Shown in pieces: positions 3,978-33,460 of a DNA stretch of 64,000 nt. The translations under genes and the position numbers were made by a program. Every line of letters begins with the position of its first letter. The stretch's first letter is position 1. The DNA comes from Botryllus schlosseri (Eukaryota), in NCBI GenBank assembly GCA_051294905.1, contig CM119371.1, positions 40,798,001 to 40,862,000 on the forward strand, in the 5' to 3' direction. The notes under the pieces are model-generated. The model worked only from the letters and a program-made list of their open reading frames with translations. It searched no databases and was not told where the DNA came from.

Positions 3978-3984
3978 AGTTTAA

Positions 3985-9275: not shown

Positions 9276-12200
9276 GATTCGACCCAACTCAAATCCTATT
9301 AACGCGATCTGTTGAATCGAACGTAACCTGAATATTACTGACGCCAACATTCACCCTCATCGGATCATTCACACATTCCACGCCGCTGTTTTAACACTTA
9401 TAGAATCAATACCAACTATCTCTGACCCGATATTATTCAATCATTTTGGTAATTTGCCAACTTTAAATCCATTCGCGGGATGTACTAAAGGTAAATCCAA
9501 ATAATCCAGAATGAAATATTTGGACTTTGACATTGCGTGAATTGAAATAGGTTTGACAAACATGACTACCAACTTTGATCCAGCCACATTTCAAACTCAA
9601 AAGAATTATTCACAACATTAACAATTGTTAAAAATCTAGTTTCACTTACTTGATTATATCATTACAACTCACAAATTTGAATTAATTCATCCTGGTTGTA
9701 TTCGTATGCTCTATCTTTTTATTCAATTGTAAAGGTAGTTACTATTTTGAAGACAAAGTATTTACTAATCGGCGCATATACGATTTGACTTGGACATTTT
9801 ATATTTTGAGTATACGAGATTTGAATGTCTGAACAATAACTGAGAATTAATTTATCACAAATAAATCCGTATATTACAGCGTAAAAGATATTGGGGTGTC
9901 AGCAACTCTGTACGGTCGTAGTTACAACCACATTAACTAATCTACCCAGGCAACTCGTCATGATCATTCCTGAAATCAACACAAACACGACCACTGACTT
10001 GAGTTAACCGCGAAATACCATCAAGTTTTAAATCCGCTTGCAGCTGACGGATTATTCGAATGCATCGATGGGGAATATTATTGAACTCGTCGGTATTGTT
10101 ACTTCAACAAATTACACCGACTGCGAAAGTTAATATCGAATGGTAAGACTTGATCACATATTTGTTGATCACAGACATGACGAAAAAACATTACCGAGAT
10201 TTTATAAACTAGTCATATTACTCTACACATCTATCAATATCAAAATGCGAGTCATCCAATTTTTCTACTAAAGTAACATTGCACTTTCGGATTCGAATTC
10301 GGTATAGTCACACAAATTGTATTAAATCCAACATCAAAACAAAAGGAATTTTTTAGTTTATTGAAATCAAATCATTCGTCTTCGACTTGTGCTTTTCTAG
10401 ATTACCCGCGACAATTCGTTTCGAGTGAGTTGTAACCAAAGTCAAGATATCTTTGTGTCCACAGATATGGAAGATGAATATAGCTAACACAATCACGAAT
10501 CGACGTTTCAGAGTATTTCACGGTGTAATAAACTTGTTAGTGTCACCTATCTAAAAGTACGCACGCGTTCGATTTCCATACCGACTGTTGCGATGTTTAG
10601 GATTCACTTACAATAACCACGGGTGAGGATTTAACATCAATGTCGTTACTGTCGGAATTCGCGACAGAGAATTGAAACATATGCACTTTACAGAGTGTGA
10701 AAATATCACTTTGAGTATCGAGTACCGTTCGAAGCTAGCGATAAATTCTTAATCATTTCAGTAACTCCCCATTGTGCGTGCTAAATGTAAAATATCGCAA
10801 GGTTATACACTCTAAGACTTTGATTATCGTAAAAGTAAATTGTGATATGTTTGTTAGATGCATCCAATTCAACTAGAAGTGTCTAGTATCCAACACTCGT
10901 AATATCAAAAAAGTACTTGCTACACTGTTATTTGCTAAACGTGTTTTGCATTGTTGTTCATTTCTAGTATTGATTGAAATTGTTTTTGAACCCTCAAATA
11001 ATAATTCCCGACATGAAACTAAGCCGCCGAAAGTCGTTACCATCACAAAGAAACAATTTGCACGATGTTTACTAAATGTATCCTATAGTTAGGTGTACTG
11101 GAATTATTTGTAAAACACACACACACACACACACACACGATCAGAGAAATTGGAAATTTTTCCGTTGTCATTCGCTAAAGTAAATGTCATCACAATACTC
11201 TGTCACTAAAAGACGTTACTTGGACGTGCTTGAATTCTAGACATAGTTCTGATTTACCCAACACAAGACCCAAGGACAACCCTATTTCAGCCGAACACAG
11301 ATATCCAAAATATCACACACTTCGCTATTCCTAAAGCACAAACACACGATACAAAATAATACTTGTTGTGTTGTTGCGGCATCATCACTCAACAATATCA
11401 CCCTCAATACAAATGATGTTTATGTGTAACATGCTATTGATTTGAACCACACCCACCTGACGGAAGAGGATTTACTCAATCTTTACAAAACGGATATTGA
11501 CCAACATCACATCACCGGATTGTATCTGTTTCGCTGGATACGAGTTATGTTAGTTTAACAGTAAACAAATTTCACCCTCTTGGATTATGAACTCAATGCG
11601 TTAGCAGTCATTCAATATTTTGTTTGTGTCAACTAGTTACTTGGTATGTTACTCCACAACTCTTACAAAAGTACGAAGGATATTAACATCGCATTAAGTA
11701 ATTAACTTTACTCGATATTCTCGCATTACGAAACTAAAGAATGGTTGGTTAGACTCTACAAACTGTTTCGATATCACAAGACCTTTATTGTCTGAATGGG
11801 TGTTCATGTGTCTTAAGAACCAAATAGTTCAACACAGCACTAGTACCAACAGAAACATCAGAGTTGTTTACACAAAAGTTTGTATGCGTGCAGTATGCGA
11901 ATACCATGTGTAAGTCCAGCACAATTGTGGTATCCATCCGGGTTTAGTTAACACAATTTACGACACCGAGGTCACCACATCTTTCGTAAGACAACAAACC
12001 AACCAAGGTTTCAGGATATGTCCGTGTCATAGCAATAAATCAGCTACTCCAACAACAGAGTACATATGTTTTCTAGTTACGGCGCTTACATCTTACACAC
12101 AAATCAATCTACTTTGCTAACAAAAAGTGCTGGGTCATCAAGTGATTACCCTAACAACAAAACAGCTAAACGTACTATCATACAAAATGGCCGTTATAGT

Positions 12201-12859
12201 CACCAACGGTACATGGTACAAGTAACAAGTCTCGAGAATCCAGTTATTGAAAAAACATGAAAGTGTTTCTCCTGCGCCAAGTCGTTATGTTGACGAAAGC
12301 GTATATTGTAATATCATGATCGATTTGCATTCGTTGGTCACAAAATGTCACTACTCTAAATAATTATTTTTCACTCAAACACAAACGCATACTTGTCGCC
12401 AATCGTTTTCATCAAGCACGAGTTCAAGAAACCTGCTACGACATGAATTGTTATTTTTTTATGTTGTGTAAATAGGTAATAATTAATTTTAGTAACACTA
12501 TATCAACATCATCTAGTTGCGCGAATAGATTTACACGTGGTCTTGTGGTTTTAATCGAAGTACACAGCGCGGTCTAACGCGGAGTCATCTCTATTGTACA
12601 GCAACTCGGAAATCGAAATGCATGCATTAACATTTAAACAGCGATCGTGTTTCGTCACGCGAAAAATATGTTCACCACCGCGATACTCTGCACAGGGCGT
12701 GCAAATCCTTTTCACACTCGTAATAGTATACCAACGGCTACCGGCGACAACGTTTAACAATACCAACGACACTAAACATACGATACCTACCCAAGTAAAA
12801 TTTCCATTTTCACCTGGAGGTCAGCCGTTACCTGACTAAAAATACCATTGTCCATTGGA

Positions 12860-13610
12860 GATTTATCGTTTACCCAGTGTAACAATCCCCTTTTCACTTG
12901 GAAATATATTTTTGACCTGGATAACAAACCCCTTTTCACTTGGAAATCTATTTTTGCCCTGTATAACAAACCTTTTTCACTTGGAAATATATTTTTTCTC
13001 TTGGTAACAAACCTTTTTCACTTGGAAATATATTTTTTCTCTGGGTAACAAACCCCTTTTCCTTTGGAAATCTATTTTTTCTCTGGGTAACAAACCTTTT
13101 TCACTTGGAAATATATTTTTTCTCTGGTTAACAAACCTTTTTCACTTGGAAATATATTTTTTCTCTGGGTAACAAACCCCTTTTCCTTTGGAAATCTATT
13201 TTTTCTCTGGATAACAAACCTTTTTCACTTGGAAATATATTTTTTCTCTGGCTAACAAACCTTTTTCACTTGGAAATATATTTTTTCTCTTGGTAACAAA
13301 CCTTTTTCACTTGGAAATATATTTTTTCTCTGGTTAACAAACCTTTTTCACTTGGAAATATATTTTTTCTCTGGTTAACAAACCTTTTTCACTTGGAAAT
13401 ATATTTTTTCCCCGGGTAACAAACCTTTTTCCCTGAGCAACAAACCATTTTCACTTGGTGGTCCGTCGTTTACCCGAGTAAAAATATCATTTTCCTTTAG
13501 AGATCCGGCGTTTACCCAGTGTAACAATACATTTCCACTTGGAAATCTGTCATTTACCTGAGTACCAATACCGTTTCACTTGGAAATCTATCATTTTCCT
13601 GGGTAACAAT
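12860..13610 (+). repeat. 41-bp minisatellite in the left arm of B
   Basis: Unit AACAAACCTTTTTCACTTGGAAATATATTTTTTCTCTGG(G/T)T, period 41 (13081 to 13122), degenerate at the edges. Confidence 0.9.
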
Positions 13611-13773
13611 ACCATTTTCGTTTTGAAAACTAACCACCACACCGGGTCAATTTGATATTTTTGGATATTGTTACAACGGACAGTGACAACATTTACACCA
13701 ACAGCGACTCCGATACATTTGTGTAATCGCATTTTCACTTGTTCTGGTGCATCCCATCAAAATCGACGGTTAG

Positions 13774-13806
<33 letters not shown>

Positions 13807-15499
13807 AACAACGCGCTATTTCGATATGACTGCAATGTCCGGATTCGTGCTTTAGATTTTCCAGAATCAATCCGTCTAAAGTTGTAATCCCCCCGACTTT
13901 GTTAACTGGTTGATACACGGATAACAATCTTCGGAAAATGTAGGAAGCATGCTACCCATCGTGCGCACGATTCCAGGTTACTTGTGATTAATTTCCTTGC
14001 TCACACTATACAGATTATACGTACAGGGATATGTAGCGGTAATCGGTTTGGTCAATACATATCGCCCCATCCAGTATGGAATTACAAACCCAATGCAGGC
14101 CAGTTCATAACCGGATCCGGATATTCAATGCAAAGCGATAAAGCAGAACCAATGAACAAATGTAATTAAACATATAGATTCACAACCCTTGATTTTTTTT
14201 TTCGTGAAAAATGACAACACATGTCGAATATACTTTACGATTGTTCAACCCTACCAAGTACTCACGTAAATGTGGTTTATGACATTACATACAATGTGTC
14301 GGTGTACAAATGTTGGGTGTTTATGCACACATCGGTATGACCCATAGACAACATCATCATACCCTCTAGGACTTCAGTCAACTACCATTGGTCTCTCGAT
14401 ACAGCGAACGATACAGTATGCAACACATATCATTAGAGTGATATATCCACAGGTAAATATGGGGACTGGCCACAATAATTGTATCGAGATTTAACCGAGA
14501 TTACTATCCGTTCACTGATTCACTCGATGGTTTTAGCAACTTGAAACATCACAAGATAGACACGACTCGAATTACTAATATTCACAATGTTTATAAGTGT
14601 CGTTACTGATCGCGCACTAAGTCTATATGAATATTCGAAAAATCGGGTATCGCTACTCTCAACACCAGTGATTCGGTTTAAGTTTGAAATCGATTTGGTA
14701 ATGTAATCCAAAATGGTGTGTTTCTGCGGGATCTGTTAACCTTTACAAGAGAGTGCTGTCTCTTTGACGCATGAAACAATTATTATCAACCACACCTTGC
14801 GTGCATCGATTTGTCGGCGTCGTACAATTATTGTGGCCAGTCCCCATATTTACCTGTGGATATATCACTCTAATGATATGTGTTGCATACTGTATCGTTC
14901 GCTGTATCGAGAGACCAATGGTAGTTGACTGAAGTCCTGGAGGGTATGATGATGTTGTCTATGGGTCATACCGATGTGTGCATAAACACCCAACATTTGT
15001 ACACCGACACATTGTATGTAATGTCATAAACCACATTTACGTGAGTACTTGGTAGGGTTGAACAATCGTAAAGTATATTCGACATGTGTTGTCATTTTTC
15101 ACGAAAAAAAAAATCAAGGGTTGTGAATCTATATGTTTAATTACATTTGTTCATTGGTTCTGCTTTATCGCTTTGCATTGAATATCCGGATCCGGTTATG
15201 AACTGGCCTGCATTGGGTTTGTAATTCCATACTGGATGGGGCGATATGTATTGACCAAACCGATTACCGCTACATATCCCTGTACGTATAATCTGTATAG
15301 TGTGAGCAAGGAAATTAATCACAAGTAACCTGGAATCGTGCGCACGATGGGTAGCATGCTTCCTACATTTTCCGAAGATTGTTATCCGTGTATCAACCAG
15401 TTAACAAAGTCGGGGGGATTACAACTTTAGACGGATTGATTCTGGAAAATCTAAAGCACGAATCCGGACATTGCAGTCATATCGAAATAGCGCGTTGTT

Positions 15500-15532
<33 letters not shown>

Positions 15533-15695
15533 CTAACCGTCGATTTTGATGGGATGCACCAGAACAAGTGAAAATGCGATTACACAAATGTATCGGAGTC
15601 GCTGTTGGTGTAAATGTTGTCACTGTCCGTTGTAACAATATCCAAAAATATCAAATTGACCCGGTGTGGTGGTTAGTTTTCAAAACGAAAATGGT

Positions 15696-16446
15696 ATTGT
15701 TACCCAGGAAAATGATAGATTTCCAAGTGAAACGGTATTGGTACTCAGGTAAATGACAGATTTCCAAGTGGAAATGTATTGTTACACTGGGTAAACGCCG
15801 GATCTCTAAAGGAAAATGATATTTTTACTCGGGTAAACGACGGACCACCAAGTGAAAATGGTTTGTTGCTCAGGGAAAAAGGTTTGTTACCCGGGGAAAA
15901 AATATATTTCCAAGTGAAAAAGGTTTGTTAACCAGAGAAAAAATATATTTCCAAGTGAAAAAGGTTTGTTAACCAGAGAAAAAATATATTTCCAAGTGAA
16001 AAAGGTTTGTTACCAAGAGAAAAAATATATTTCCAAGTGAAAAAGGTTTGTTAGCCAGAGAAAAAATATATTTCCAAGTGAAAAAGGTTTGTTATCCAGA
16101 GAAAAAATAGATTTCCAAAGGAAAAGGGGTTTGTTACCCAGAGAAAAAATATATTTCCAAGTGAAAAAGGTTTGTTAACCAGAGAAAAAATATATTTCCA
16201 AGTGAGAAAGGTTTGTTACCCAGAGAAAAAATAGATTTCCAAAGGAAAAGGGGTTTGTTACCCAGAGAAAAAATATATTTCCAAGTGAAAAAGGTTTGTT
16301 ACCAAGAGAAAAAATATATTTCCAAGTGAAAAAGGTTTGTTATACAGGGCAAAAATAGATTTCCAAGTGAAAAGGGGTTTGTTATCCAGGTCAAAAATAT
16401 ATTTCCAAGTGAAAAGGGGATTGTTACACTGGGTAAACGATAAATC
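15696..16446 (-). repeat. 41-bp minisatellite, mirror copy
   Basis: Reverse complement of 12860-13610. Confidence 0.9.
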
Positions 16447-19400
16447 TCCAATGGACAATGGTATTTTTAGTCAGGTAACGGCTGACCTCCAGGTGAAAAT
16501 GGAAATTTTACTTGGGTAGGTATCGTATGTTTAGTGTCGTTGGTATTGTTAAACGTTGTCGCCGGTAGCCGTTGGTATACTATTACGAGTGTGAAAAGGA
16601 TTTGCACGCCCTGTGCAGAGTATCGCGGTGGTGAACATATTTTTCGCGTGACGAAACACGATCGCTGTTTAAATGTTAATGCATGCATTTCGATTTCCGA
16701 GTTGCTGTACAATAGAGATGACTCCGCGTTAGACCGCGCTGTGTACTTCGATTAAAACCACAAGACCACGTGTAAATCTATTCGCGCAACTAGATGATGT
16801 TGATATAGTGTTACTAAAATTAATTATTACCTATTTACACAACATAAAAAAATAACAATTCATGTCGTAGCAGGTTTCTTGAACTCGTGCTTGATGAAAA
16901 CGATTGGCGACAAGTATGCGTTTGTGTTTGAGTGAAAAATAATTATTTAGAGTAGTGACATTTTGTGACCAACGAATGCAAATCGATCATGATATTACAA
17001 TATACGCTTTCGTCAACATAACGACTTGGCGCAGGAGAAACACTTTCATGTTTTTTCAATAACTGGATTCTCGAGACTTGTTACTTGTACCATGTACCGT
17101 TGGTGACTATAACGGCCATTTTGTATGATAGTACGTTTAGCTGTTTTGTTGTTAGGGTAATCACTTGATGACCCAGCACTTTTTGTTAGCAAAGTAGATT
17201 GATTTGTGTGTAAGATGTAAGCGCCGTAACTAGAAAACATATGTACTCTGTTGTTGGAGTAGCTGATTTATTGCTATGACACGGACATATCCTGAAACCT
17301 TGGTTGGTTTGTTGTCTTACGAAAGATGTGGTGACCTCGGTGTCGTAAATTGTGTTAACTAAACCCGGATGGATACCACAATTGTGCTGGACTTACACAT
17401 GGTATTCGCATACTGCACGCATACAAACTTTTGTGTAAACAACTCTGATGTTTCTGTTGGTACTAGTGCTGTGTTGAACTATTTGGTTCTTAAGACACAT
17501 GAACACCCATTCAGACAATAAAGGTCTTGTGATATCGAAACAGTTTGTAGAGTCTAACCAACCATTCTTTAGTTTCGTAATGCGAGAATATCGAGTAAAG
17601 TTAATTACTTAATGCGATGTTAATATCCTTCGTACTTTTGTAAGAGTTGTGGAGTAACATACCAAGTAACTAGTTGACACAAACAAAATATTGAATGACT
17701 GCTAACGCATTGAGTTCATAATCCAAGAGGGTGAAATTTGTTTACTGTTAAACTAACATAACTCGTATCCAGCGAAACAGATACAATCCGGTGATGTGAT
17801 GTTGGTCAATATCCGTTTTGTAAAGATTGAGTAAATCCTCTTCCGTCAGGTGGGTGTGGTTCAAATCAATAGCATGTTACACATAAACATCATTTGTATT
17901 GAGGGTGATATTGTTGAGTGATGATGCCGCAACAACACAACAAGTATTATTTTGTATCGTGTGTTTGTGCTTTAGGAATAGCGAAGTGTGTGATATTTTG
18001 GATATCTGTGTTCGGCTGAAATAGGGTTGTCCTTGGGTCTTGTGTTGGGTAAATCAGAACTATGTCTAGAATTCAAGCACGTCCAAGTAACGTCTTTTAG
18101 TGACAGAGTATTGTGATGACATTTACTTTAGCGAATGACAACGGAAAAATTTCCAATTTCTCTGATCGTGTGTGTGTGTGTGTGTGTGTGTTTTACAAAT
18201 AATTCCAGTACACCTAACTATAGGATACATTTAGTAAACATCGTGCAAATTGTTTCTTTGTGATGGTAACGACTTTCGGCGGCTTAGTTTCATGTCGGGA
18301 ATTATTATTTGAGGGTTCAAAAACAATTTCAATCAATACTAGAAATGAACAACAATGCAAAACACGTTTAGCAAATAACAGTGTAGCAAGTACTTTTTTG
18401 ATATTACGAGTGTTGGATACTAGACACTTCTAGTTGAATTGGATGCATCTAACAAACATATCACAATTTACTTTTACGATAATCAAAGTCTTAGAGTGTA
18501 TAACCTTGCGATATTTTACATTTAGCACGCACAATGGGGAGTTACTGAAATGATTAAGAATTTATCGCTAGCTTCGAACGGTACTCGATACTCAAAGTGA
18601 TATTTTCACACTCTGTAAAGTGCATATGTTTCAATTCTCTGTCGCGAATTCCGACAGTAACGACATTGATGTTAAATCCTCACCCGTGGTTATTGTAAGT
18701 GAATCCTAAACATCGCAACAGTCGGTATGGAAATCGAACGCGTGCGTACTTTTAGATAGGTGACACTAACAAGTTTATTACACCGTGAAATACTCTGAAA
18801 CGTCGATTCGTGATTGTGTTAGCTATATTCATCTTCCATATCTGTGGACACAAAGATATCTTGACTTTGGTTACAACTCACTCGAAACGAATTGTCGCGG
18901 GTAATCTAGAAAAGCACAAGTCGAAGACGAATGATTTGATTTCAATAAACTAAAAAATTCCTTTTGTTTTGATGTTGGATTTAATACAATTTGTGTGACT
19001 ATACCGAATTCGAATCCGAAAGTGCAATGTTACTTTAGTAGAAAAATTGGATGACTCGCATTTTGATATTGATAGATGTGTAGAGTAATATGACTAGTTT
19101 ATAAAATCTCGGTAATGTTTTTTCGTCATGTCTGTGATCAACAAATATGTGATCAAGTCTTACCATTCGATATTAACTTTCGCAGTCGGTGTAATTTGTT
19201 GAAGTAACAATACCGACGAGTTCAATAATATTCCCCATCGATGCATTCGAATAATCCGTCAGCTGCAAGCGGATTTAAAACTTGATGGTATTTCGCGGTT
19301 AACTCAAGTCAGTGGTCGTGTTTGTGTTGATTTCAGGAATGATCATGACGAGTTGCCTGGGTAGATTAGTTAATGTGGTTGTAACTACGACCGTACAGAG

Positions 19401-20159
19401 TTGCTGACACCCCAATATCTTTTACGCTGTAATATACGGATTTATTTGTGATAAATTAATTCTCAGTTATTGTTCAGACATTCAAATCTCGTATACTCAA
19501 AATATAAAATGTCCAAGTCAAATCGTATATGCGCCGATTAGTAAATACTTTGTCTTCAAAATAGTAACTACCTTTACAATTGAATAAAAAGATAGAGCAT
19601 ACGAATACAACCAGGATGAATTAATTCAAATTTGTGAGTTGTAATGATATAATCAAGTAAGTGAAACTAGATTTTTAACAATTGTTAATGTTGTGAATAA
19701 TTCTTTTGAGTTTGAAATGTGGCTGGATCAAAGTTGGTAGTCATGTTTGTCAAACCTATTTCAATTCACGCAATGTCAAAGTCCAAATATTTCATTCTGG
19801 ATTATTTGGATTTACCTTTAGTACATCCCGCGAATGGATTTAAAGTTGGCAAATTACCAAAATGATTGAATAATATCGGGTCAGAGATAGTTGGTATTGA
19901 TTCTATAAGTGTTAAAACAGCGGCGTGGAATGTGTGAATGATCCGATGAGGGTGAATGTTGGCGTCAGTAATATTCAGGTTACGTTCGATTCAACAGATC
20001 GCGTTAATAGGATTTGAGTTGGGTCGAATCAATACATTCAAATACGATTCAACTTGATTTGTGTAGTGAGTTACACTGATGACTCCCACTTTATCAAACG
20101 ATATGACATCGAACAGCGTCAACACTATGCAAGTCGGAGCAACTTCAAATTTTCACGTC

Positions 20160-21274
20160 AGTAGTATAGTCGATCGCTCGCATGCGGCTATAGGGTTCTT
20201 ATGGGCGGGGTGGCACGGTGCCGAGAAAACCGGGGGTGGCACGGTGACCCTTATATCTTATGGCGGGGGTGGCACGGTGCCATTGTGTCTTATGGCGGGG
20301 GTGGCACGGTTACTTTTTCGGGTATAGGCTGCGGCGGCACGGTGCCGCGAAAACTCGTGGTGACATGGTTACCTTTTCAGGTATAGGCGCGGTGACATGG
20401 TGACCTTTCAGGAGAGATGATTTGACTAACGTTGTGGGTATAGGCGCGGCGGCACGGTGTTGAATATGTATCAAGTAAATAGTCATGTGATTGGTCTTTA
20501 GTTAATGTGTATATTCCAAATTACGGTGAGTGCGACAATGACATATCGTTATTCTTATGGACGCGGCGATGATTCGTACTTTCGAGTATAGACATCCCTC
20601 GCGTGGTGTTGAATATGTACGAGTCACCAACAATAACCGCGCGGACGGAAACGTGGTTTGTTGTGAGGATTACGCGTGCGACCTATATTTCGAATGACCT
20701 GCGCGCTGACTTATTTCTCGTCCAGTCGCTACTATCGATTATTACACTAGACCGGTCAGTGTGAAATAGTTTGATCGTAAATTATGATATACGATGTCGT
20801 AGTTTAATCGTGTCAAATGACCGATCGTGTTCTCTTTCCTCGCTATTGATTGCTAGCTGAATAATACTTTCGGTTTATTCGCTGTTTCGCGCCTACAAAA
20901 TAATCTGCTGTTCACAGGCGCAACAAGAATCACAAGTATATACATTTACACATTCGTTTATTACTCTGAAATCAAACTCTTCACAAAAACACGTACAATC
21001 GTATCATTCACTTTTTTATCATCGCCAAAATTATCCAAGTATTCCTCGGTTGAAAACCCTTGAGCTCTTTTTATCAAGAATGCGATAGCATGATCTCCAC
21101 ACACATCTGAAGTTTTACTCTGTAACTGTTTCCCAGTCACTGAAAATTCATCCGGCTCCAGGAATTCGATTATCTGAGGTTTTAGTGGTCCGAAGCCTAG
21201 CGAATCATGAAAATGAGTATCGTCATCTCTGTATATAGACACCCAGTGAGACCCAGGCAAACTCGACTCATCGT
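20160..21274 (+). repeat. Left TIR of element C (1115 bp)
   Basis: Reverse complement of 34859-35973; contains GCACGGTGC-type internal repeats and the protease 3' part. Confidence 0.95.
20961..21274 (-). pseudogene. 5'-truncated duplicate of the protease gene inside the left TIR
   Basis: DESSLPGSHW...KSLISE is identical to the C-terminal part of 34729-35172; no ATG start (TTG only). Confidence 0.85.
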
Positions 21275-21279
21275 GCAAA

Positions 21280-21915
21280 CTATTCTTTCAATTCAACAAG
21301 TCTAGTTAACGGATCGATTTTCAAGCTGCCGACACAGTTTTTAACACGAGTGAGTTGATATTTCTTCTCGGGTACGAGCGAGGCTTTGTTCCATTGGTCC
21401 AAAACCACCTCACCAGTATCATCCTTCAATGTAAAACTGTATAATTTCAACTCCTTTCCGGCACCAGAATTGACCATCTTCTCCTCTCGAGAAACACAAG
21501 TAGCGGCGATCGAGACGTATTCATCTTTATTTCCGTATACCGATTCACAGGTCAATAATGGGTATTCTTCAGTCGTATGTCTCGATTTTCCATGTAGAGT
21601 TACTGACGAAGCCCGACCAAGTAATACAGCGGGTTTTCCAGTAAATTTATCAATTTGAACCCAACCGGATTTGACCATGAGTTTTTTTCGTTTGGTGAAT
21701 GCTTTCTCAATGTTCCCGAACAAATCACGATTGAAACACGTGAAAGATATCTCTTCGTTATTACCATCGATGAATATACCTTTGAGATATTGGCTAACGC
21801 CACCTCTTTTGGGTGATGAGACGAATTTGACGCCGACGTGAAAATTTGAAGTTGCTCCGACTTGCATAGTGTTGACGCTGCTCGATGCCATATCGTTTGA
21901 TAAAGTGGGAGTCAT
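21280..21915 (-). CDS. Tandem OB-fold protein, RPA/SSB-like (element C)
   Basis: First ATG at 21915. Same OB-like motifs as 8071-8706, with 6 aa differences. TATAAATA on the minus strand at ~21931-21938. Confidence 0.72.
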   Translation of the reverse strand: MTPTLSNDMASSSVNTMQVGATSNFHVGVKFVSSPKRGGVSQYLKGIFIDGNNEEISFTCFNRDLFGNIEKAFTKRKKLMVKSGWVQIDKFTGKPAVLLGRASSVTLHGKSRHTTEEYPLLTCESVYGNKDEYVSIAATCVSREEKMVNSGAGKELKLYSFTLKDDTGEVVLDQWNKASLVPEKKYQLTRVKNCVGSLKIDPLTRLVELKE

Positions 21916-22053
21916 CAACAAACCCGTCGATATTTATAGAATTAGGCACGTTGTATTGAGTGAGTTAACAGTCTTTGTATAATCCTGATGACCCGCGTGA
22001 ATAGACTTGGATTGAAATAAACTTTACAGGAGTTCTGTAAGAAAGGATGCCGT

Positions 22054-22407
22054 TCACAAGTGACAAACGACACGAATGAATTTTCTTCTTACCCAGTCAA
22101 TTATCAATGTACTGTAGTGAGTATTCAAGATGTCTGATGCTAAATCTCTGTACGCCGCTAGGGTACGTATGTCACTTTTCATCGCCGCAATGCTTATGAC
22201 ACTAAAAACCCCGTTCCAGTCGATGCCGTATGATCGAATCGAGTTAACCAATGCGGTAAAATCGCACTTTCGAACACGGCTCACGTTTTGTCCATGTACA
22301 TAGAAATCTAGTACTCCGTGGATGAATTTTTCCGTTTCGCTCAATGCGGGGGTTGTCAAGTTATGATAATAGAGAAGGTAATTCTCAATAATCGCGCTAG
22401 TTGCCAT
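22054..22407 (-). CDS. 117-aa helical protein, possibly a viral Bcl-2-like protein
   Basis: ATG-initiated ORF in the accessory region. SYGIDWNGVFSVISI resembles BH1 (DGVNWGRIVAL) and IIDWVRRK resembles the start of BH2. Confidence 0.5.
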   Translation of the reverse strand: MATSAIIENYLLYYHNLTTPALSETEKFIHGVLDFYVHGQNVSRVRKCDFTALVNSIRSYGIDWNGVFSVISIAAMKSDIRTLAAYRDLASDILNTHYSTLIIDWVRRKFIRVVCHL

Positions 22408-22778
22408 AACGAGTATATGTAACTATCAACTGAAAAAGTAAACCATGAGAATGACACCACAATGTGTTAAAATGGTGAAATACACCGCTCAGATTTCGAA
22501 AAAACAGATGTTGCGGGTGCGTTTGACATATGTGACACAATAAAATCGCCCGTTTCGCTAAACAGGAAATTCACTAAAGCGCAGTGTGCTGTGCGATTTT
22601 GAAAAAACAGATGTCCGCGGCCGCGTTTTGATCTGTGTGACACACTAAATACGTCCGGTTCTGAAATTCGGAAACACGACCGGTTCTGAGGATTACGCAG
22701 TGTGCGTGCGGCCTATATTTCGAATGACCTGCGCGCTGAATTATTTCCCGTCCAGCCGCATGCTACTATCGAATTAAA

Positions 22779-22789
22779 TATATAAATAG
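22779..22789 (+). promoter_or_regulatory. Putative TATA box
   Basis: TATATAAATAG ~90 bp upstream of ATG 22870, directly after an internal copy of a TIR segment. Confidence 0.5.
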
Positions 22790-22869
22790 CCAACACCGCG
22801 ATCTGATTGTTATACTTCGCTGTCGCAGACATAAACGTTGGTTGGAGCAGTTAGATTAATTATTGTACA

Positions 22870-23748
22870 ATGGCCGAGGCTCAGATAGATAATCTTGACA
22901 AATTTGGTTATGAACCAAATGCATTCGAATCGCAATTTGAAGAGAATGCGGATATCTTTGACGCGATTAATCCTGGTGATCTGATGACGCCTGATTTAAG
23001 AGTTGAATCCGCAGAACGCGACCTTACGGCAACGATCGAAATACGACCAAACCATGCAGATATAGCGCACCAGGCGTGGCTGAAGTCGGGTCAACTAGCT
23101 AGAGAAAGCGTGATTAATGATCTCGCGAACTTGTTGACGACACCGTGTGTACCGACCGACGAGACAGCCGTTAGCAACGAATTGCCGAATCCCGAGAAAC
23201 CGTCGACTTCTGGGGTGACGCTACCACGCTCTGCTGAGTCGCTATCGGTGGTTGATACTCCTAAATCTGTATCAATCGACAAGCCGACTCGAAAAAGAAC
23301 CATATCGATGGGGGTGGGCATACCGCCAGCTAAACAGCTTCGTAATGGGAAATCGAAAAATTTGAATCGTACCGAACCCAAACAGAAGGCTGGTAAGAAA
23401 CCTGTGAAATCTAAAAGCGGGAGTGACGATGATTTTCGCGATGACGCGAAGGGAAAGAAGAAGCAGGAAGAAAAGTTATGTCAATACACAGTTGACAAGA
23501 TGGTCACCTACCTCCAGACTATTGACGTTGTTAAGCCGCATTTAGGTTCAATACTATGTTATGTTGATTCATTGATGGAGAAAAAAAATTTGACTGTCAC
23601 AAAGCTCATGACTGACATCAAACGATTGCTTACTGTCAAGGGTCGGCGTTGGAGTCTTGATGAGATTCAACCTGAATTAAATACCGCAACCAATGAGTAC
23701 TTGCATCGACTTCTAGAAATTAGAACAAAATTGAAGTATAATTTGTGA
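22870..23748 (+). CDS. 292-aa hypothetical Polinton accessory protein (acidic N-terminus, disordered basic middle, helical C-terminus)
   Basis: Long ATG ORF in good context (ACAATGG) downstream of a TATA box; no family recognised. Confidence 0.75.
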   Translation: MAEAQIDNLDKFGYEPNAFESQFEENADIFDAINPGDLMTPDLRVESAERDLTATIEIRPNHADIAHQAWLKSGQLARESVINDLANLLTTPCVPTDETAVSNELPNPEKPSTSGVTLPRSAESLSVVDTPKSVSIDKPTRKRTISMGVGIPPAKQLRNGKSKNLNRTEPKQKAGKKPVKSKSGSDDDFRDDAKGKKKQEEKLCQYTVDKMVTYLQTIDVVKPHLGSILCYVDSLMEKKNLTVTKLMTDIKRLLTVKGRRWSLDEIQPELNTATNEYLHRLLEIRTKLKYNL

Positions 23749-24340
23749 TTGTGCTGAATGATTTTCATTGTTGTGAGTGTCTATTCTCAATTTCTGTTTT
23801 CCGTTTCAGATTTTACATTAGAGTCATAAATAAACAATAGATTCTAAAAGCGCAACCACTAGTGGTGCTGGCGCTCTTGTAATCTCGAATCAGCTGTTTA
23901 GGTCTTTCTCTCTGGGTGTCGAGTAGCGAACAACGTGGCTGACTGTCTGGGTATATTCGACTGTGATTGGTGGATAAGGAGTTAATTAGTAAGTTATTCG
24001 GTACGATTACTTTGATTTATGAATATAATTTGTTATTTATTTATCCGCCAGACAAAACAAGCGCGGGATTAAAGAATTGAAACGGTGAGTTATTACTGTT
24101 CCGAATGATAGGAGTGAGATGTAACGATTTTGTTGTTGAACAGACAGAATAAACTCAAGTTGAACGCACGAGTCTACTGGTAAGTTATCTGCTATAACAC
24201 AACGTTAATGAGCATAGCATGATGTGTTGTTTGTTTTATTAAGCATAAAGGAAGACACCAACAAAGAAACTAGATTGTAAGTAAGACTAGTTTAATGTTC
24301 CTCAAGTGTTGAATTTGACCACGTGTTACCAATTTTACAG

Positions 24341-27300
24341 ATGAGTCGACGCAGACAAAATCGTGTTCGCGAAGAAACGAATGATGCACCAGAGATCGGT
24401 GACGAACGCCAAGAAGTTGTAAATCAGAATTGGCAAGCGATAAAATCGTATGTAGTGAATCAGAGTCGGCGCGTGTATAATATTCGAGTCATCGATCGTG
24501 AGCTAGCGGATGTTTTCCGCGATATACAAGCAATATTTTTCTCAGAGTCGACTCGTTTCAAAATCAATTTCGCGTATGCATTTATTTTGTACCACGTCGA
24601 GACTCTAAGATTTCGCTATTTTCATGCATCGGCGAATGTTGATAGTGTATTAGAAACACCAGCGGCAATTTCAACACTAGCTAAATTCGATGAATTTGTT
24701 GAATCTATTCGCTTGGAAACCGCACTAGATGTGTTACAAAACTCTCGACCAAACACAAAGTCACTGCCGATCTGTGTGACTAATGTACAGTTTTATGTAT
24801 ATCCTACCGACGGCATGTTGATTGGGTGCGTTGGTATTAAAATACCTCCGGGTCTGACACAATCGAGATGTATCTCGACATTTACACGTCGAAAAAATAA
24901 GAAACTGTACAATGACAATCTTTGTGCTTTTCGCTGTATCGCCCACTCGCTAGGAAAAGATACAAAGGAAATGGCTCAACAGTTCACTTCGGTGTATGGT
25001 GTAAATGTAGAATCTGGTGTGACTCTCGACATGCTGGATGATATCGAGGTCTTGTTTAATGTGGCCATATTCGTGTACACCAAAACTGAAGGTAAAGCTA
25101 GTGCACTCCGGCGTAGTACCTATGAAGCGAAAGCTGTTTACCTACATTTGGAAGATCGACATTTTTGTCTCATTACTAACATGAACCGTTATGTGGAGAC
25201 CTATAGATGTGTTGTTTGTCAACGATTGTTTGATGAACAATATGATTTGACCAGACACAAATGTGTAACGGGTTCTGTTGAAGTGTTTCGCGGTGGCGTG
25301 TATACACCTCCTCTGAACATATTTGAAAAACTTGATCTAGAAGGGGTGTTTGTTCCTCATCAGCTTCGTTATTTCAAATACCGTATCGCGTTCAGTATAG
25401 AGAGTGTGTATGATACCTCAAAAACTTTGCGAGAGCACCAGAACATCCCCATCTCTGTTAGCATATCGTCTAATGTGGAAGGTTACTTGGAGTCGCATGT
25501 AATTGTCTCGAGTGGTGATACAAACGATTTATGCGCACAAATGATTGACCATTTTCACGATATTCAAAGTGAATCATTCAGACTGTCACTCACAGAATAT
25601 CGACCCTACCTGGACATGCTCGAAACTAAAATTACCGAAATGAAAGTGCTCGATCCTTCAAAACACCCAATACCCCTTGAACGTTTACAAGCGGAGTTTA
25701 TGAGTTATTTACGTCAAATCCCTGTTTTGTCGTTCAATGGTGACCGGTATGACTTGAACTGGCTCAAAGCGTACTTGTTTGGTTTTCTCGTTGACGACAA
25801 TCTTAGTGTACTGAAATGTGATAACAAATTTCTCTCAATGACGACCAACAGACTCAAATTCTTGGATATTGTGAATTACTTGGCACCCGGGTTCTCGTAT
25901 GATTCATATTTGGAAGCCTTCAAATGTAGCACCGCTAAAGCTCACTTCCCGTACCAGTTTCTGAGTAGTTTGGAAAAGTTGAATAACTCGAGTCTTCCTA
26001 CCCACGACGAGTTTTACAGCTCGCTAAAGGGTTGCAATATATCAACATCAGAATATGAAAACTGTTTGAAGGTTTGGAACGACAACAAAATGACCTCTCT
26101 GCGTGATTATCTCAAATGGTGCAACGCGAACGATACTCACGACCTCATAGAGGTTTTAGAAAAACAATTCCAATCTTTCAAAAGCCAATTCAATGTTGAT
26201 ATATTCAAGGATGCGGTCTGCCTGCTCGGGGTTGTATCGAGACATCTTTTTAATAGCATACCGCGTGATTTCACAATGTTCAACGACAAACATAAAGATC
26301 TGTTTTCGCTATTCAGGGATAATTTAGTGGGTGGACCATCGATCATTTTCCATCGATACCCAAAACCGGGTGTAACTCGAATCAAAGAACATGTCTATAA
26401 GGAAAATACACAGATTGTGCAACATATAACAAGTTTGACCAGCGACTCACTCTATCTGTATGCTTTGAGTCGACCAAGTCCAACCGGATTTGCGGTACGT
26501 TGGCAACCAATCGACGCCGAGTGTACTAAATTCAAACCTGTCAAGACCGCACCGAAATGCTCAGAGACTGTAACCCAGTGGATGAATTGGTATTCTCATG
26601 TTCACAAGGTGCATGTTCACCACGCTTTTAACGGACCTGAAATTCATGTGGGCATGCGCAATTATCGACCTGATGGGTTTTATCGTAATTCGGCCGGACA
26701 AGGGATAATCTTATTGTTCCTTAGATGCGATTTTCACGCCCACGATTGTAGATTCGGATGTGATGACCCAGTCCGTCGAGAGCGAGCTAAACGTGTTCAT
26801 GATTATTACAAAAGTCTAAATTATCGAGTTGTATGTAAATGGGAATGTGAGTGGAATATTGAGAAGAGAATTCCTCATATTGTGCGATATCTCGATGGTA
26901 TTCAACCACAACTGACTCGTGCCAAGTCTGTCACCCCACAGAAATTGATGGAGATGGTGATGAATGGTACTTTCTTTGGTTGTTTGCTGGTTGATATTTG
27001 TACTCGATCACAGTCGAAAAAGCGATTCGTTGAACTCCGCCCGATATTCAAAAATACCACAGTGTCTCGCGATACCGTGAAAAGTGACATGAATCAGCTC
27101 GCTGTAGATCGGAAATCACCCAGTAAACCCACTGACATGTTGGTTGCGTCGTACTGCGGTAAGAAAATCTTGCTAACCTCCGACTTGATCAAATGGTATG
27201 TAGATCACGGGTTGGTGGTATCAAAAATTCATGAGGCTGTCGAATTCACCAAAAAGACCTGTTTTGACAACTTTGCGAAAAATGTCTCAGACTGTCGACG

Positions 27301-27925
27301 TGCTGGCGATCCTAACATGGCGATTATTGAGCTAGCGCAAAAACTCGCTGCGAATTCTTGTTATGATCGTGAGTTAATGAATCCGCGTAAACTCAAACAA
27401 ACCACGTTCTGTGATAAAAGTGAATTGGACGCAAATGTGGAGGATCGCTTTTTCATCAAGTGCGAAGAAATAAACACAGATCTATTTGAAATAACGAAGC
27501 ACCCTCAAAAGATCGAGCAAGATAACTGCATTCAAGTATCGTTCTGGTTGTATAATAATGTCAAATTACGGATGTTGTCGTTTTTTTATGACTGTTTATG
27601 CAAATATTTTCGTGCCGACAGCTTCATGCTACTTTCGGTGGATATCAACTCGTTTTTCATCGCGCATTCAGCCCCACTCGATGACATTCTCATTTCCGAG
27701 AAAAGGAACGAATTTTACTGTGATTACGAGAATTGGTTTCCACGTTATTTTTGCGATGAGCATCGAGACGAATTCTTGACTGATCCGATTTCTTTCGACC
27801 GCTCGAGACAATGCTGTAAAGATACGTATGCTCATTATCTTCATCAACCTGGTTTGATGGAAGTGAGATACGACGCCGATGCATCTTTCCACGGTCTCAA
27901 TCGCTTTCGCAGTGACCAAAGATAA
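24341..27925 (+). CDS. Protein-primed family B DNA polymerase (pPolB) homologue, catalytic motifs substituted
   Basis: ATG at 24341 follows TTTTACAG. Polinton pPolB hallmarks: DNLCAFRC, zinc-finger-like CxxC...H, FNGDRYDL, LKFLDIVNYLAPGFSY, FPY, LVGGPSIIFHRY, KLAANSCY, KLRMLSFFYD, PGL. Confidence 0.93.
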   Translation: MSRRRQNRVREETNDAPEIGDERQEVVNQNWQAIKSYVVNQSRRVYNIRVIDRELADVFRDIQAIFFSESTRFKINFAYAFILYHVETLRFRYFHASANVDSVLETPAAISTLAKFDEFVESIRLETALDVLQNSRPNTKSLPICVTNVQFYVYPTDGMLIGCVGIKIPPGLTQSRCISTFTRRKNKKLYNDNLCAFRCIAHSLGKDTKEMAQQFTSVYGVNVESGVTLDMLDDIEVLFNVAIFVYTKTEGKASALRRSTYEAKAVYLHLEDRHFCLITNMNRYVETYRCVVCQRLFDEQYDLTRHKCVTGSVEVFRGGVYTPPLNIFEKLDLEGVFVPHQLRYFKYRIAFSIESVYDTSKTLREHQNIPISVSISSNVEGYLESHVIVSSGDTNDLCAQMIDHFHDIQSESFRLSLTEYRPYLDMLETKITEMKVLDPSKHPIPLERLQAEFMSYLRQIPVLSFNGDRYDLNWLKAYLFGFLVDDNLSVLKCDNKFLSMTTNRLKFLDIVNYLAPGFSYDSYLEAFKCSTAKAHFPYQFLSSLEKLNNSSLPTHDEFYSSLKGCNISTSEYENCLKVWNDNKMTSLRDYLKWCNANDTHDLIEVLEKQFQSFKSQFNVDIFKDAVCLLGVVSRHLFNSIPRDFTMFNDKHKDLFSLFRDNLVGGPSIIFHRYPKPGVTRIKEHVYKENTQIVQHITSLTSDSLYLYALSRPSPTGFAVRWQPIDAECTKFKPVKTAPKCSETVTQWMNWYSHVHKVHVHHAFNGPEIHVGMRNYRPDGFYRNSAGQGIILLFLRCDFHAHDCRFGCDDPVRRERAKRVHDYYKSLNYRVVCKWECEWNIEKRIPHIVRYLDGIQPQLTRAKSVTPQKLMEMVMNGTFFGCLLVDICTRSQSKKRFVELRPIFKNTTVSRDTVKSDMNQLAVDRKSPSKPTDMLVASYCGKKILLTSDLIKWYVDHGLVVSKIHEAVEFTKKTCFDNFAKNVSDCRRAGDPNMAIIELAQKLAANSCYDRELMNPRKLKQTTFCDKSELDANVEDRFFIKCEEINTDLFEITKHPQKIEQDNCIQVSFWLYNNVKLRMLSFFYDCLCKYFRADSFMLLSVDINSFFIAHSAPLDDILISEKRNEFYCDYENWFPRYFCDEHRDEFLTDPISFDRSRQCCKDTYAHYLHQPGLMEVRYDADASFHGLNRFRSDQR

Positions 27926-28549
27926 AATTAATCACGGCATTGAATGTTATTGTAGTGAATATTTTGTGTGTGGTGTTATTGTATTTTATTTGTATATTTT
28001 GCTTGTTTGGTGTGATTTATTTGTATTGTGTGTTCATGTATCATTTGTTTTCCAGATGGATAACACTATTACCTATCTAAAGTCTGTCATGTCGTTAGAT
28101 TTTAATGGTTTACATGTAGAGATGACTGCCTTGGAGCGGGAATTACCACATTTCATGATTCTTGGTTCTACCAAACAACTCTCAACGTCGATGATACCCG
28201 ATTGATGAAAAGCAGACCACCAAAACTTGTGATCCGTGGTAAGGTCTATAGTTTGGTATAGTAACACTTTTAGATTTTAAAGCGCTATGAACGTATTACG
28301 AATCCTCTTATGTGATTTATTATTTTACAGATTGGGGTCAGCTGCTTGACGACCTGAAGCGCTCGTAACACTGCAACTTCCACTGACGATGAGGAACAGA
28401 TGAAGATTTCATAACCCGCGGAAAATTGTTAAATCGAACTCTACTGGGATTATATATTCCACTAGAACAAGATGACTACAACAGTGGATATTCCCAACCT
28501 TGTTGATATATAAACACATACACTTTATCGAGTTTTCAATAAACAACAA

Positions 28550-29161
28550 ATGATGGAATTGATCCACCCATTCGCGTGTATTGTGAGTGGTCCTTCAAGA
28601 AGTGGGAAGACTACTTTTGTTGCAAAGCTGATTAGACATGCGACATCCATGATTAAACCTAGTGTGTCCAGGGTCGTATATTGTTACAATAATTATCAGG
28701 AGGTTTTCAAGACGATGCATAACGTAGAATTCCACGCTGGTCTAGATATTTTAGAAGAGTTGAAGGCTTGCTCTGAAGACACCTTGATTATAGTGGATGA
28801 TTTCATGACTGAGACAGCGAAAATTGCAGACTACTTTACAAGATTTTCACATCATTCGGCCAAGTCAATTTGCTATAGCACGCAGAACCTGTACCACAAG
28901 GGTAAAGGGGCACGTGACTTGAGTCTTTCAAGCTCGTATATGGTGATTTTCAAGAATCCGCGCGACCAACAACAGATCAGTTTTCTTGGTCGACAAATGT
29001 ACCCAAACTCTAGATTTTTAACAGAGGCTTATCGTGACGCTGCTAGACAACCTCATAGTTATTTATTCCTTGATCTCACGCAAGAAGCACCTGAAAATCG
29101 ACGAGTTATGACCAATATATTTCCTGGTGAAACCATGGTGGTTTATAGCCCGATGGTATAA
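28550..29161 (+). CDS. A32/FtsK-like DNA packaging ATPase
   Basis: HPF...GPSRSGKTT Walker A, LIIVDD Walker B, HH, TQNLY, FKNPRD, PHSYLFLDL. TATATAAA at 28507. Confidence 0.93.
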   Translation: MMELIHPFACIVSGPSRSGKTTFVAKLIRHATSMIKPSVSRVVYCYNNYQEVFKTMHNVEFHAGLDILEELKACSEDTLIIVDDFMTETAKIADYFTRFSHHSAKSICYSTQNLYHKGKGARDLSLSSSYMVIFKNPRDQQQISFLGRQMYPNSRFLTEAYRDAARQPHSYLFLDLTQEAPENRRVMTNIFPGETMVVYSPMV

Positions 29162-29194
29162 ATAGCCAAGCGCAGAGACGACTTTAAACTCAAA

Positions 29195-29542
29195 ATGACC
29201 AAGGTACCAGCTCGGACACGGCGGCATATTCCCACACTGGAGTTCCTACATAAAAGTAAACCCGAGATACGCAAGCAAATTATATCGGGAGCCAGCAAAG
29301 AATTGATCGAGTGTATATGCGATTGTACAAAGAACATTTTAAATGGTAACATCCCTCTTTCAAAGTATAAAAGAAAGCGACTATCAGCTCATAAATGTAG
29401 TTTACGTCGACTTGTCAGGAAAGACATCCCTATTCGACATAAGAAACGTATGGTTAACCAGCATGGGGGTATGTTTATGACTCTATTATCAAGCATCCTA
29501 CCCGTCGTCACTGGTTTACTCGGTAATCTTTTCAAAAAATGA
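29195..29542 (+). CDS. Conserved small basic Polinton virion protein with QxGG motif and C-terminal amphipathic helix
   Basis: ICDCTKNILNGNIPL...KKRMVNQHGG-MFMTLLSSILPVVTGLL; position after the ATPase is typical. Confidence 0.8.
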   Translation: MTKVPARTRRHIPTLEFLHKSKPEIRKQIISGASKELIECICDCTKNILNGNIPLSKYKRKRLSAHKCSLRRLVRKDIPIRHKKRMVNQHGGMFMTLLSSILPVVTGLLGNLFKK

Positions 29543-29934
29543 CTTCTTTTAAAAAAATCTTCATAAATCCGAGCCCGATCAACGGAGCTGACGTTCAGAA
29601 ATTGAATTTGGATATCGACAAATGTATGAGCGACATATTACAGATGAACATACCCCAAGAACGAAAATTAGCCTTATATAACGACGCACTAAATCGTTAT
29701 CAAACAAAACACGACACACTGAATCAACCGATGAAAATCGATATATCAGAACAAAGGAATCTATTTTCGGCAAGTGAGTTGGACGCACTGCGACGCCTGA
29801 TCAAGGGTGAACCATCAAGGATTCCTATACCATCGCCGAGTAGCCAACGAAGCAAAGTAAAGACTCAGCATGCCAAGACGAAAAGCGGTCGTACACCCAA
29901 GACCCCGAGACGATACGGATGGGAGCCATACTAA
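29539..29934 (+). CDS. 131-aa Polinton protein upstream of the integrase
   Basis: LDIDKCMSDIL...ERKLALYNDALNRY and terminal WEPY; ATGA overlap with the upstream ORF. Confidence 0.75.
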   Translation: MTSFKKIFINPSPINGADVQKLNLDIDKCMSDILQMNIPQERKLALYNDALNRYQTKHDTLNQPMKIDISEQRNLFSASELDALRRLIKGEPSRIPIPSPSSQRSKVKTQHAKTKSGRTPKTPRRYGWEPY

Positions 29935-30940
29935 GTATTTCACGCCAGGGCTACCCGGTAGTTATCGCGGTGCATACGTATTCTCTAGAGGGCGGAATAG
30001 AGCCAAAGTCAAGGAGTTTCTTTCGAGCAAGGACGCGTACACAAAACATTTTCCCTATCGAAAGAAATTTAAGAGACCTAGAGTGATTACGTCCGGTCTC
30101 GGTGTTCAGTATCAAACCGATCTCATGCATATGCAAAATCTTTCAGAAGAAAACGATAATTTTAAATATGTGTTGGTGACGATCGATTGTTTCAGCCGAT
30201 TTTTATATCTGTATCCACTCAAAAACAAAACCTCGCAAGGTATTATTCGTGGATTCAAGGAAATATTTAAGGATCGTATACCTCATGTTATTCAAAGTGA
30301 TCAAGGTTCTGAGTTTACTAATCGTGCGTTTCAGACTTTCTTAAAAGAGAACAATGTGCGACATTTTCATACAAATAGTGAACTGAAAGCATCGATATGC
30401 GAGCGTGTTATTCGTACTGTGAAGCAAGTGTTATACCGGTATTTCACGCATAATAAGACTTTGAATTATGTCAGTGTCCTGTCTGAGATATGCCGGGGGT
30501 ATAACACTACTTTTCACGTTGCTATAGGGTGTCCTCCAGCGGATGTTGATTATTCAAATCAAGAACAAATTTTCCATAGGTTATACGGTGACATGACCCC
30601 TAAAAAACCCAAACTAACTATCGGCACACCGGTCAGGATTTCGAAATCACGTGGTAATTTTGTAAAAAGTGCCTTGGCGAGTTGGACCGAAGAAATCTTT
30701 TTCGTATCTCAATGTCGTAAAGGTGACCCTCCTACTTATCAATTGAAAGACTACCATGGTGAAGTTATAGACGGTCGCTTTCAGCGTGAAGAGTTACAAC
30801 CAATAACTAAAAATAATAATATTTACAATATCGAGAAAATCCTGTCTACTCGCAGGAAAGGAAAGAAAACGCAATATTTTGTAAAATGGTTGGGTTACCC
30901 ATCTACATTTAATTCCTGGGTCTCGGATTTGTATAAATAG
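29870..30940 (+). CDS. Retroviral-like (rve) DDE integrase with C-terminal chromodomain
   Basis: YQTDL, IDCFSR, QSDQGSEF and ICERVIRT give an intact D-D-E triad. IEKIL...YFVKWLGYPSTFNSWV is a chromodomain. Start uncertain. Confidence 0.95.
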   Translation: MPRRKAVVHPRPRDDTDGSHTKYFTPGLPGSYRGAYVFSRGRNRAKVKEFLSSKDAYTKHFPYRKKFKRPRVITSGLGVQYQTDLMHMQNLSEENDNFKYVLVTIDCFSRFLYLYPLKNKTSQGIIRGFKEIFKDRIPHVIQSDQGSEFTNRAFQTFLKENNVRHFHTNSELKASICERVIRTVKQVLYRYFTHNKTLNYVSVLSEICRGYNTTFHVAIGCPPADVDYSNQEQIFHRLYGDMTPKKPKLTIGTPVRISKSRGNFVKSALASWTEEIFFVSQCRKGDPPTYQLKDYHGEVIDGRFQREELQPITKNNNIYNIEKILSTRRKGKKTQYFVKWLGYPSTFNSWVSDLYK

Positions 30941-30949
30941 ACGCTGAAA

Positions 30950-31183
30950 ATGTTGTTCAACCAAACTATGGATTCTGATTCCGGCTCATCTCGCATGGGT
31001 CAAGTCTCGAACAGTCTGAAAAACCAGATTGTGTTTATTGTACAGATTTGTATGTTAGTGTGTGTAATCGTGTTTTCCTTATATCAAATTTCTGTCGGGG
31101 TGGATCGTGAGATATATTTAACGCTACTGTCTTCTTCACTTGGGTATTTATTACCGAATCCATCACCTCACCGTATATGTTGA
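30950..31183 (+). CDS. Small two-TM membrane protein
   Basis: Hydrophobic IVFIVQICMLVCVIVFSL and IYLTLLSSSLGYLLPNP, between integrase and penton as in many Polintons. Confidence 0.7.
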   Translation: MLFNQTMDSDSGSSRMGQVSNSLKNQIVFIVQICMLVCVIVFSLYQISVGVDREIYLTLLSSSLGYLLPNPSPHRIC

Positions 31184-31196
31184 AAGAAACAATAAA

Positions 31197-33455: not shown

Positions 33456-33460
33456 GAACT

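Follow-up and report, generated by a model that had tools for sequence, protein, structure and literature searches.

The closest parallel to the locus described here appears, by analogy, to be the RPA gene that plant Helitrons lacking a helicase have kept. For Plant Helitron RPA (PHRPA) and the Mothra mother element, PMC4683698 describes a non-autonomous derivative in which the RPA gene remains although the replication enzyme has been lost. Our locus shares with PHRPA/Mothra the pattern of a eukaryotic DNA transposon with an RPA-like gene of its own, which is kept by a derivative lacking the replication enzyme. It differs in that those elements are rolling-circle transposons of plants, whereas the one considered here is presumably of the protein-primed type and resides in an animal; the likeness is one of pattern.

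Protein-primed replicons provide the second comparison. Their polymerases displace a strand, and the viruses that use them often encode an SSB; according to PMC4889955, these SSBs have no relationship to OB proteins. The Bam35/phi29 SSB group is presented in 10.1101/2021.03.25.437074 as the first, highly diverged OB-like case, with a single domain. The initial annotation had argued from adenovirus and phi29 to the usefulness of an SSB in a Polinton; functionally this analogy stands, but it does not extend to structure, since the SSBs of those systems are not RPA-type according to both sources. Adenovirus DBP, phi29 p5, Bam35 SSB and PRD1 P12/P19 have in common with the protein studied here a presumed role in strand displacement, but are non-OB proteins or contain a single diverged OB-like domain, as opposed to a tandem RPA-type OB. 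Viral SSBs composed of several OB domains do exist, such as baculovirus LEF-3 (7yny; PMC9825184) and the RPA homologue of EhV-86 (PMC4889955), but these are larger (340-450 aa or more), belong to large RNA-primed viruses and are 9-14% identical to our protein.

The third system is that of the Polintons/Mavericks (adintoviruses), for which PMC8097293 gives (AGT)2//(ACT)2 as the end motif and describes eight core genes along with variable accessory regions. Term searches turned up no mention of an SSB or OB gene of Polintons in PMC8502044, 10.1101/2024.03.25.586562, 10.1101/2024.03.18.585575, PMC13348850, 10.64898/2026.10.13.758929, 10.1101/2023.08.22.554363 and 10.64898/2026.06.19.733378. More generally, no report of an OB/RPA-like gene in Polintons was found in the literature searched, largely the main text of non-subscription papers. 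As far as this search reaches, the Polinton context of the gene is therefore new, while its fold is ordinary. We know of no demonstration of how Polintons copy their DNA.

The window analysed here is a stretch of 64,000 nucleotides of Botryllus schlosseri DNA. Self-comparison and inspection of ends revealed in it three nested insertions, each having AGTAGT...ACTACT ends and its own 6-bp TSD. The outermost, element A (6931..38115; TSD GACGTC), has Polinton ends, measures about 1.1 kb once its insert is discounted and splits a host repeat that runs unbroken elsewhere in the window. Inserted in A is element B (7261..37344; TSD CTCGCG), a palindromic non-autonomous Polinton derivative with arms of 6,702 bp each around a unique central spacer of 339 nt (14484..14822); by arithmetic from the coordinates, B is 13,743 bp long without its two insertions. 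One of these insertions is a repeat with short TIRs and an 8-bp TSD (8763..9275), which we take to be a hAT-like MITE of the host. The other is element C (20160..35973; TSD CACGTC), a gene-complete Polinton of 15,814 bp with TIRs of about 1.1 kb (20160..21274 on the left and 34859..35973 on the right), which lies with its 6-bp target duplication in the right arm of B. A, B and C nest one in another, CG being present in every target duplication, which suggests that such elements insert by preference into their own kind. An assembly artefact was considered and rejected, as each of the three nested insertions has its own clean 6-bp TSD and the protein discussed below is also present in an independent record. 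It should be added that positions 1-830 form the right-hand end of a further element, whose Polinton-type TIR is approximately 73% alike to that of C and has its closing ACTACT at 830, and that both arms of B contain a 41-bp minisatellite (12788-13632 and 15674-16518).

Element C corresponds to described Polintons both in its ends, with TIRs that terminate in (AGT)2//(ACT)2 and a 6-bp TSD, and in its genes, among which are a chromodomain integrase (rve, E 4e-16) and a P-loop ATPase (with a weak Pox_A32 match, E 0.026); capsid-like and protease-like ORFs and a length of 15.8 kb complete the likeness. The capsid, protease and polymerase labels are our assumption from Polinton gene order and motifs. 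Relatives of the ATPase, integrase, capsid-like and protease-like ORFs occur together at one metagenome locus (L003), and no locus related to the capsid, integrase or ATPase was found in viral contigs. The seven integrase-bearing metagenome loci, being only 1.9-5.0 kb long and thus short for this purpose, gave no OB profile match (best E 0.17).

The leftmost gene of C, adjoining its left TIR, is an ORF of 211 codons from the first ATG (21280..21915, minus strand), hereafter the OB-OB gene; by chance the window would be expected to contain about 0.008 stop-free frames as long as this. The initial annotation had placed a gene with two motif-bearing halves in a Polinton, and both its location and its two halves are borne out: the motifs occupy aa 49-62 and aa 163-176, and each half forms a barrel of its own in the predicted model. 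BLASTP detected no similarity between the halves, an internal duplication being undetectable that way. The product is small and basic (23 kDa, pI 9.2). Its true start could be Met9 or Met17, for a TATA-like word starts merely 23 nt ahead of the first ATG of the C copy, and the record of the closest homologue begins at Met9.

The three copies counted in the initial annotation were recovered by tblastn across the window, though only two of them are intact, namely that of C and that in the left arm of B (8071..8706, minus strand), which differ by 5 synonymous and 6 non-synonymous substitutions. The third, in the right arm of B, was split by the insertion of C into a 5' piece (20079..20159, plus strand) and a 3' piece (35974..36534, plus strand), each with 0 mismatches to the left-arm copy. 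A 194-aa ORF (35950-36534) was not accepted as a gene in its own right, since it amounts to the 3' piece of the split copy, with an ATG within the TIR serving as its start. It had also been claimed that this is the only gene kept by a defective element. For palindromic B, as tested, this agrees with our data: the gene is present in both arms, and 0 of the 12 other C ORFs match B by tblastn, a search that a spliced or very small gene could escape. Only one of the 39 stop-free frames of at least 50 codons in the interior of B has a Pfam match at E ≤ 0.01, a match that falls short of the cut-off and is probably due to chance. However, the copy at 21280..21915, to which the claim was attached, belongs to gene-complete C.

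Two homologues of the OB-OB protein were found, one 97% identical (P0001) and the other, P0002, of 214 aa and 27% identity (E 3e-5), which is acidic (pI 5.6), has no Pfam match and is borne by contigs of up to 12,767 nt. The searches, which covered unfused forms of about this length, returned 1 of 65 candidates, 2 of 629, 2 of 1443 at E ≤ 10 and 2 among 1.84 billion representatives. No related locus was found in viral contigs, metagenome contigs or phages; the absence of a tblastn match in 50,697 phage records and of a meaningful PHROG match concerns two methods that are insensitive at the distance of phi29 p5 and B35SSB. In Pfam the protein reaches 13.2 bits with PF01336 against a cut-off of 27 (E 0.091) and thus stays below the level of an OB family assignment. 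Searches of PDB sequences with the whole protein, A1, domain 1 or P0002 gave chance matches only, whereas domain 2 alone gave weak phmmer matches to RPA, to archaeal 3e0e around the Trp motif (E 0.85) and to Ustilago RPA70 (E 1.5), with 6 rows in total.

AlphaFold2 with alignment A3 (4 rows, 2 distinct sequences) returned one confident model of five (pLDDT 72.4, pTM 0.48; the others 53.6, 44.3, 41.5 and 37.3), as compared with pLDDT 33.6 on the single sequence. The best model consists of two beta-barrels, OB domain 1 (aa 25-108; 21592..21843, minus strand) and OB domain 2 (aa 123-209; 21289..21549, minus strand), joined by a linker with pLDDT under 50. It presents the five-stranded closed barrel with capping helix of the OB-fold superfamily twice, and the tandem OB fold is in our opinion well supported by the modelling. 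P0002, at 27% identity, has retained both the length of the protein and its pattern of two barrels.

Foldseek against the PDB ranked DBD-A/B of RPA70 (1jmc) first (E 9.3e-8, TM 0.39, rmsd 14.9, 14% identity), and RPA70 entries (1jmc, 1fgu, 4gop) lay within ranks 1-4 and 6, with 79 of at least 500 matches at E ≤ 0.001. The large rmsd over both barrels is due to the uncertain inter-domain angle of the model. In VIA-align (48,161 chains), each domain taken singly reached Z 9-10 and rmsd 2-3 with archaeal RPA-type OBs, SSB and PriB; domain 1 aligned to bacterial SSB (Z 9.1, rmsd 2.8, 88 aligned residues) and to Teb1 OB-A (Z 8.9), and domain 2 to archaeal OB 2k75 (Z 10.4, rmsd 2.9, 82 aligned). The best rows in a viral structure library were LEF-3 (E 1.8e-5) and then an EhV-86 protein (1.1e-4). 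In the ESM Atlas the query fell into OB/RPA clusters (feature score 0.94), its ten best family-bearing matches all being of one family or clan, and P0002 into OB/RPA clusters at 0.94-0.95, with recognition below threshold. The model, the three fold searches, the ESM Atlas and the weak sequence matches thus sustain what was first proposed, a tandem OB fold of RPA likeness, and the comparison with RPA70 DBD-A/B that had been suggested as a check returned a predicted OB fold with these domains in first place.

F61 and F91 of domain 1 and W175 of domain 2 are common to P0002 at 25-27% identity and presumably sit, judged by OB topology, at three of the four aromatic positions of RPA70; W175 alone is tied to an RPA by an alignment tool (phmmer, domain 2), and the fourth position is not aromatic in our protein. 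The four conserved aromatics of RPA70 are F238, F269, W361 and F386 (PMC4937323). In comparison with RPA70 (human 1jmc and 1fgu, Ustilago 4gop/4gnx), the two OB barrels, the short linker and the top Foldseek rank are shared; the OB-OB protein differs in being a stand-alone protein of 211 aa, 14% identical, with two domains only, that is, without 70N or the zinc-binding DBD-C, and without RPA32/RPA14 partners in the element. The model thus suggests RPA70 DBD-A and DBD-B with a flexible linker and nothing else attached, a protein that would work like DBD-A/B, yet is no member of RPA1.

The structural ranking does not separate RPA from its neighbours, and this counts against an RPA-specific reading: HIN-200 domains (from E 1.0e-6) and Teb1 AB (3.2e-7) follow RPA within about tenfold in Foldseek, with POT1 at 6.2e-5, and the whole-protein VIA scores of HIN, Teb1 and RPA70 (Z 9.0, 8.9 and 8.4) are not separated. 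Teb1 AB, POT1 and HIN-200 share the two-barrel architecture at near-RPA scores, but are cellular proteins that bind telomeres in a sequence-specific manner or bind dsDNA. The protein might, in particular, resemble the HIN protein p202 and coat the dsDNA of the extrachromosomal element, hiding it from host sensors or nucleases. Many HIN domains were indeed matched at E 1e-6 to 1e-4, with a lower rmsd over both barrels than RPA (10-12 vs 15), the p205 HIN aligned over 156 residues in VIA, and domain 1 is strongly basic (14 K+R vs 6 D+E). We regard this dsDNA coat as very unlikely, given that the rmsd depends on an inter-domain geometry that is unreliable in the model (linker pLDDT under 50, pTM 0.48), that the aromatic positions of presumed RPA type are conserved and that homologue P0002 is acidic; besides, HIN proteins are known as a mammalian family. 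Pfam gave no HIN match at E ≤ 1.

The OB-OB genes of B and C are 98.3% identical over a stretch that begins 2 nt ahead of the first ATG and runs to 6 nt past the stop, whereas in the upstream 1.5 kb the similarity was not above that of 50 shuffles (score 24 vs mean 24.5) and the TIR blocks of the two elements show 7% and 21% substitutions. Synonymous divergence of the gene amounts to 5 of approximately 139 sites (3.6%) and is thus lower than that of the TIRs, which suggests that the coding cassette was lately exchanged or homogenised between lineages with already different flanks. The coincidence between upstream junction and start would be weaker if translation began at Met9, as the junction would then be 26 nt away from the start. 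On the downstream side it is C that stands apart, the flank in reads and contigs of other runs being of the B type. The left TIR of C, with polyadenylation-like signals downstream of the OB-OB gene, contains an inverted copy of codons 64-167 of the protease-like ORF (20964-21275, minus strand), 99% identical and ending 6 nt short of the OB stop, which suggests that the TIR of C grew inward by copying the right end and stopped at the stop codon of the OB-OB gene; a contig of run X7 is without the inverted protease copy.

These divergences also bear on an end-specific role in the manner of Teb1, POT1 or TEBP, in which the protein would recognise the single-stranded terminal AGT repeats or an opened origin and aid initiation, end protection or integration. 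The near-RPA scores of Teb1 AB and POT1 are consistent with such a role, as is the AGTAGT terminus common to all three nested elements. We nevertheless hold it to be rather improbable: a gene that is almost the same in B and C next to TIR blocks that are 7% and 21% different shows no co-divergence with the ends, and RPA was the target of the only sequence-level matches.

Transcription was assessed by mapping the reads of 4 of 24 listed runs over 20161-34858. Run X24, chosen independently of the OB-OB gene, is single-cell RNA with the same species label as the best-matching DNA run, and about 3% of it yielded 866 reads, nearly all of them (858) second mates. Bin 21141-21630 had the highest depth of 30 bins, 52.5 in one orientation vs 0.97 in the other, although 3' depth of this kind is not a protein level. 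Peaks near the ends of plus-strand genes (16.5, 15.7 and 11.7) have the opposite orientation, and the OB-OB reads are therefore sense. They fall within the final 200 nt of coding sequence, and an AATAAA found 175 nt past the OB stop in the B-type flank fits the position of such 3' tags. All 152 RNA reads at 21368 carry a non-C base and 20 reads continue into the B-type flank, so that the transcripts come from other copies of the family and not from the copy at 21280..21915; the B-type flank cannot tell satellites from other complete elements. Some reads at 34280-34486 derive from a more distant family. Contigs of X7 and X8, being of uncertain type, were left out as expression evidence. At 21445-21475 there are RNA reads with loose ends (24 and 12 reads), which come from a divergent OB-OB version differing in a loop of domain 2 and point to a second OB-OB subfamily that is also transcribed.

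In DNA run X1 the summed contig depth, which is not a copy number, was 46,000-86,000 over the OB-OB gene, 16,000-23,000 over the integrase-capsid part and 2,600-5,900 over the polymerase region, the polymerase-like ORF lying about 4-fold below the capsid block. This depth serves as a lead in judging whether B merely carries the gene, that is, whether a protein possibly working as SSB in complete Polintons is encoded in B because a fold-back of the left end drags the TIR-adjacent gene along. Such passive carriage is a real possibility, although we would not bet on it. The gene does adjoin the TIR, its dN/dS between B and C (about 0.34) is not significantly below 1 (p 0.07), and both B copies in the window have been struck by insertions, the presumed MITE some 55 nt upstream of the left-arm gene and C inside the other, which counts against a role in B. 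On the other hand, the block shared by B and C is almost exactly the coding sequence, the low synonymous divergence points to recent exchange and not to simple descent, and X1 depth is greater over this gene than over the integrase-capsid part.

There is, finally, little likelihood in our view that the gene is a captured or degenerate OB gene whose product binds something else (RNA or a protein partner) or plays no part in replication at present. OB folds take a wide range of ligands, and editosome, MCM and tRNA-synthetase OBs were matched in VIA at Z 7.7-8.8; moreover, the gene is absent from the eight vertebrate Maverick core genes given in PMC8097293. However, the best whole-protein matches are tandem DNA-binding OBs, the OB-OB gene family is transcribed from a specific strand, and the architecture is kept in P0002 despite its low identity.

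The OB-OB gene is thus real, and in light of its modelled structure a role as SSB is likely: we consider it probable that the protein serves strand-displacement replication of the protein-primed kind as a minimal RPA-like SSB. It would be the element's own sequence-independent ssDNA-binding protein. Protein-primed copying would start from the TIR ends, and the protein would coat the displaced strand, limiting premature fold-back and nuclease attack and helping the polymerase through panhandles and, in B, through the 6.7-kb hairpin. As a near-total palindrome, B might gain most from such a coat; it would borrow polymerase, integrase and capsid in trans, and would have kept, or recently re-acquired, an intact OB-OB copy per arm. 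RPA's modules for protein interaction lie in 70N and 32C (PMC8210275), and a protein without these or the trimerisation core would cover DNA yet bring in no host repair or checkpoint factors.

In a Polinton, a tandem RPA-type gene that is transcribed would be an exception to the non-OB or barely-OB SSBs of protein-primed replicons, and the 23-kDa candidate is a directly testable protein. That an RPA-type gene is kept by a helper-dependent palindrome, as it is in plant Helitrons, an unrelated transposon class, suggests that ssDNA coating may be limiting for such elements. More speculatively, and we think this unlikely, palindromic satellites may be more than parasites and act as SSB donors: they would exchange the cassette with helper elements, bear two doses of it and provide the greater part of a checkpoint-silent ssDNA coat, by which a borrowed protein-primed polymerase could copy giant fold-back genomes; in that case RPA-type SSB genes would recur among animal Polintons as an accessory that has been overlooked.

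Several further features of the window deserve mention. The polymerase-like ORF of C (24341-27925, plus strand) is fully open over 1194 aa and has no match to Pfam PolB, the PDB or phages. We recognise it as a polymerase by motifs only, of which exonuclease I and polymerase A and C are off the family B consensus at catalytic positions; possibly, the polymerase is inactive and the frame is maintained for the sake of its terminal-protein part. It is preceded by a 292-aa ORF (22870-23748, plus strand) with an acidic N-terminus, a Lys-rich middle and no family match. A segment of about 544 nt (22015-22558) is absent from contigs of runs X1 and X7, which suggests optional cargo; inside it lies a 117-aa ORF (22054-22407, minus strand) with no Pfam match. 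Three adjacent paralogous ORFs of 276, 223 and 131 aa (31197-33087, plus strand), 29-34% identical in their C-terminal regions, are presumably minor capsid proteins. Beyond the nested elements, a direct duplication of host repeats with a period of about 6.58 kb and 94-100% identity extends over approximately 51650-63000.
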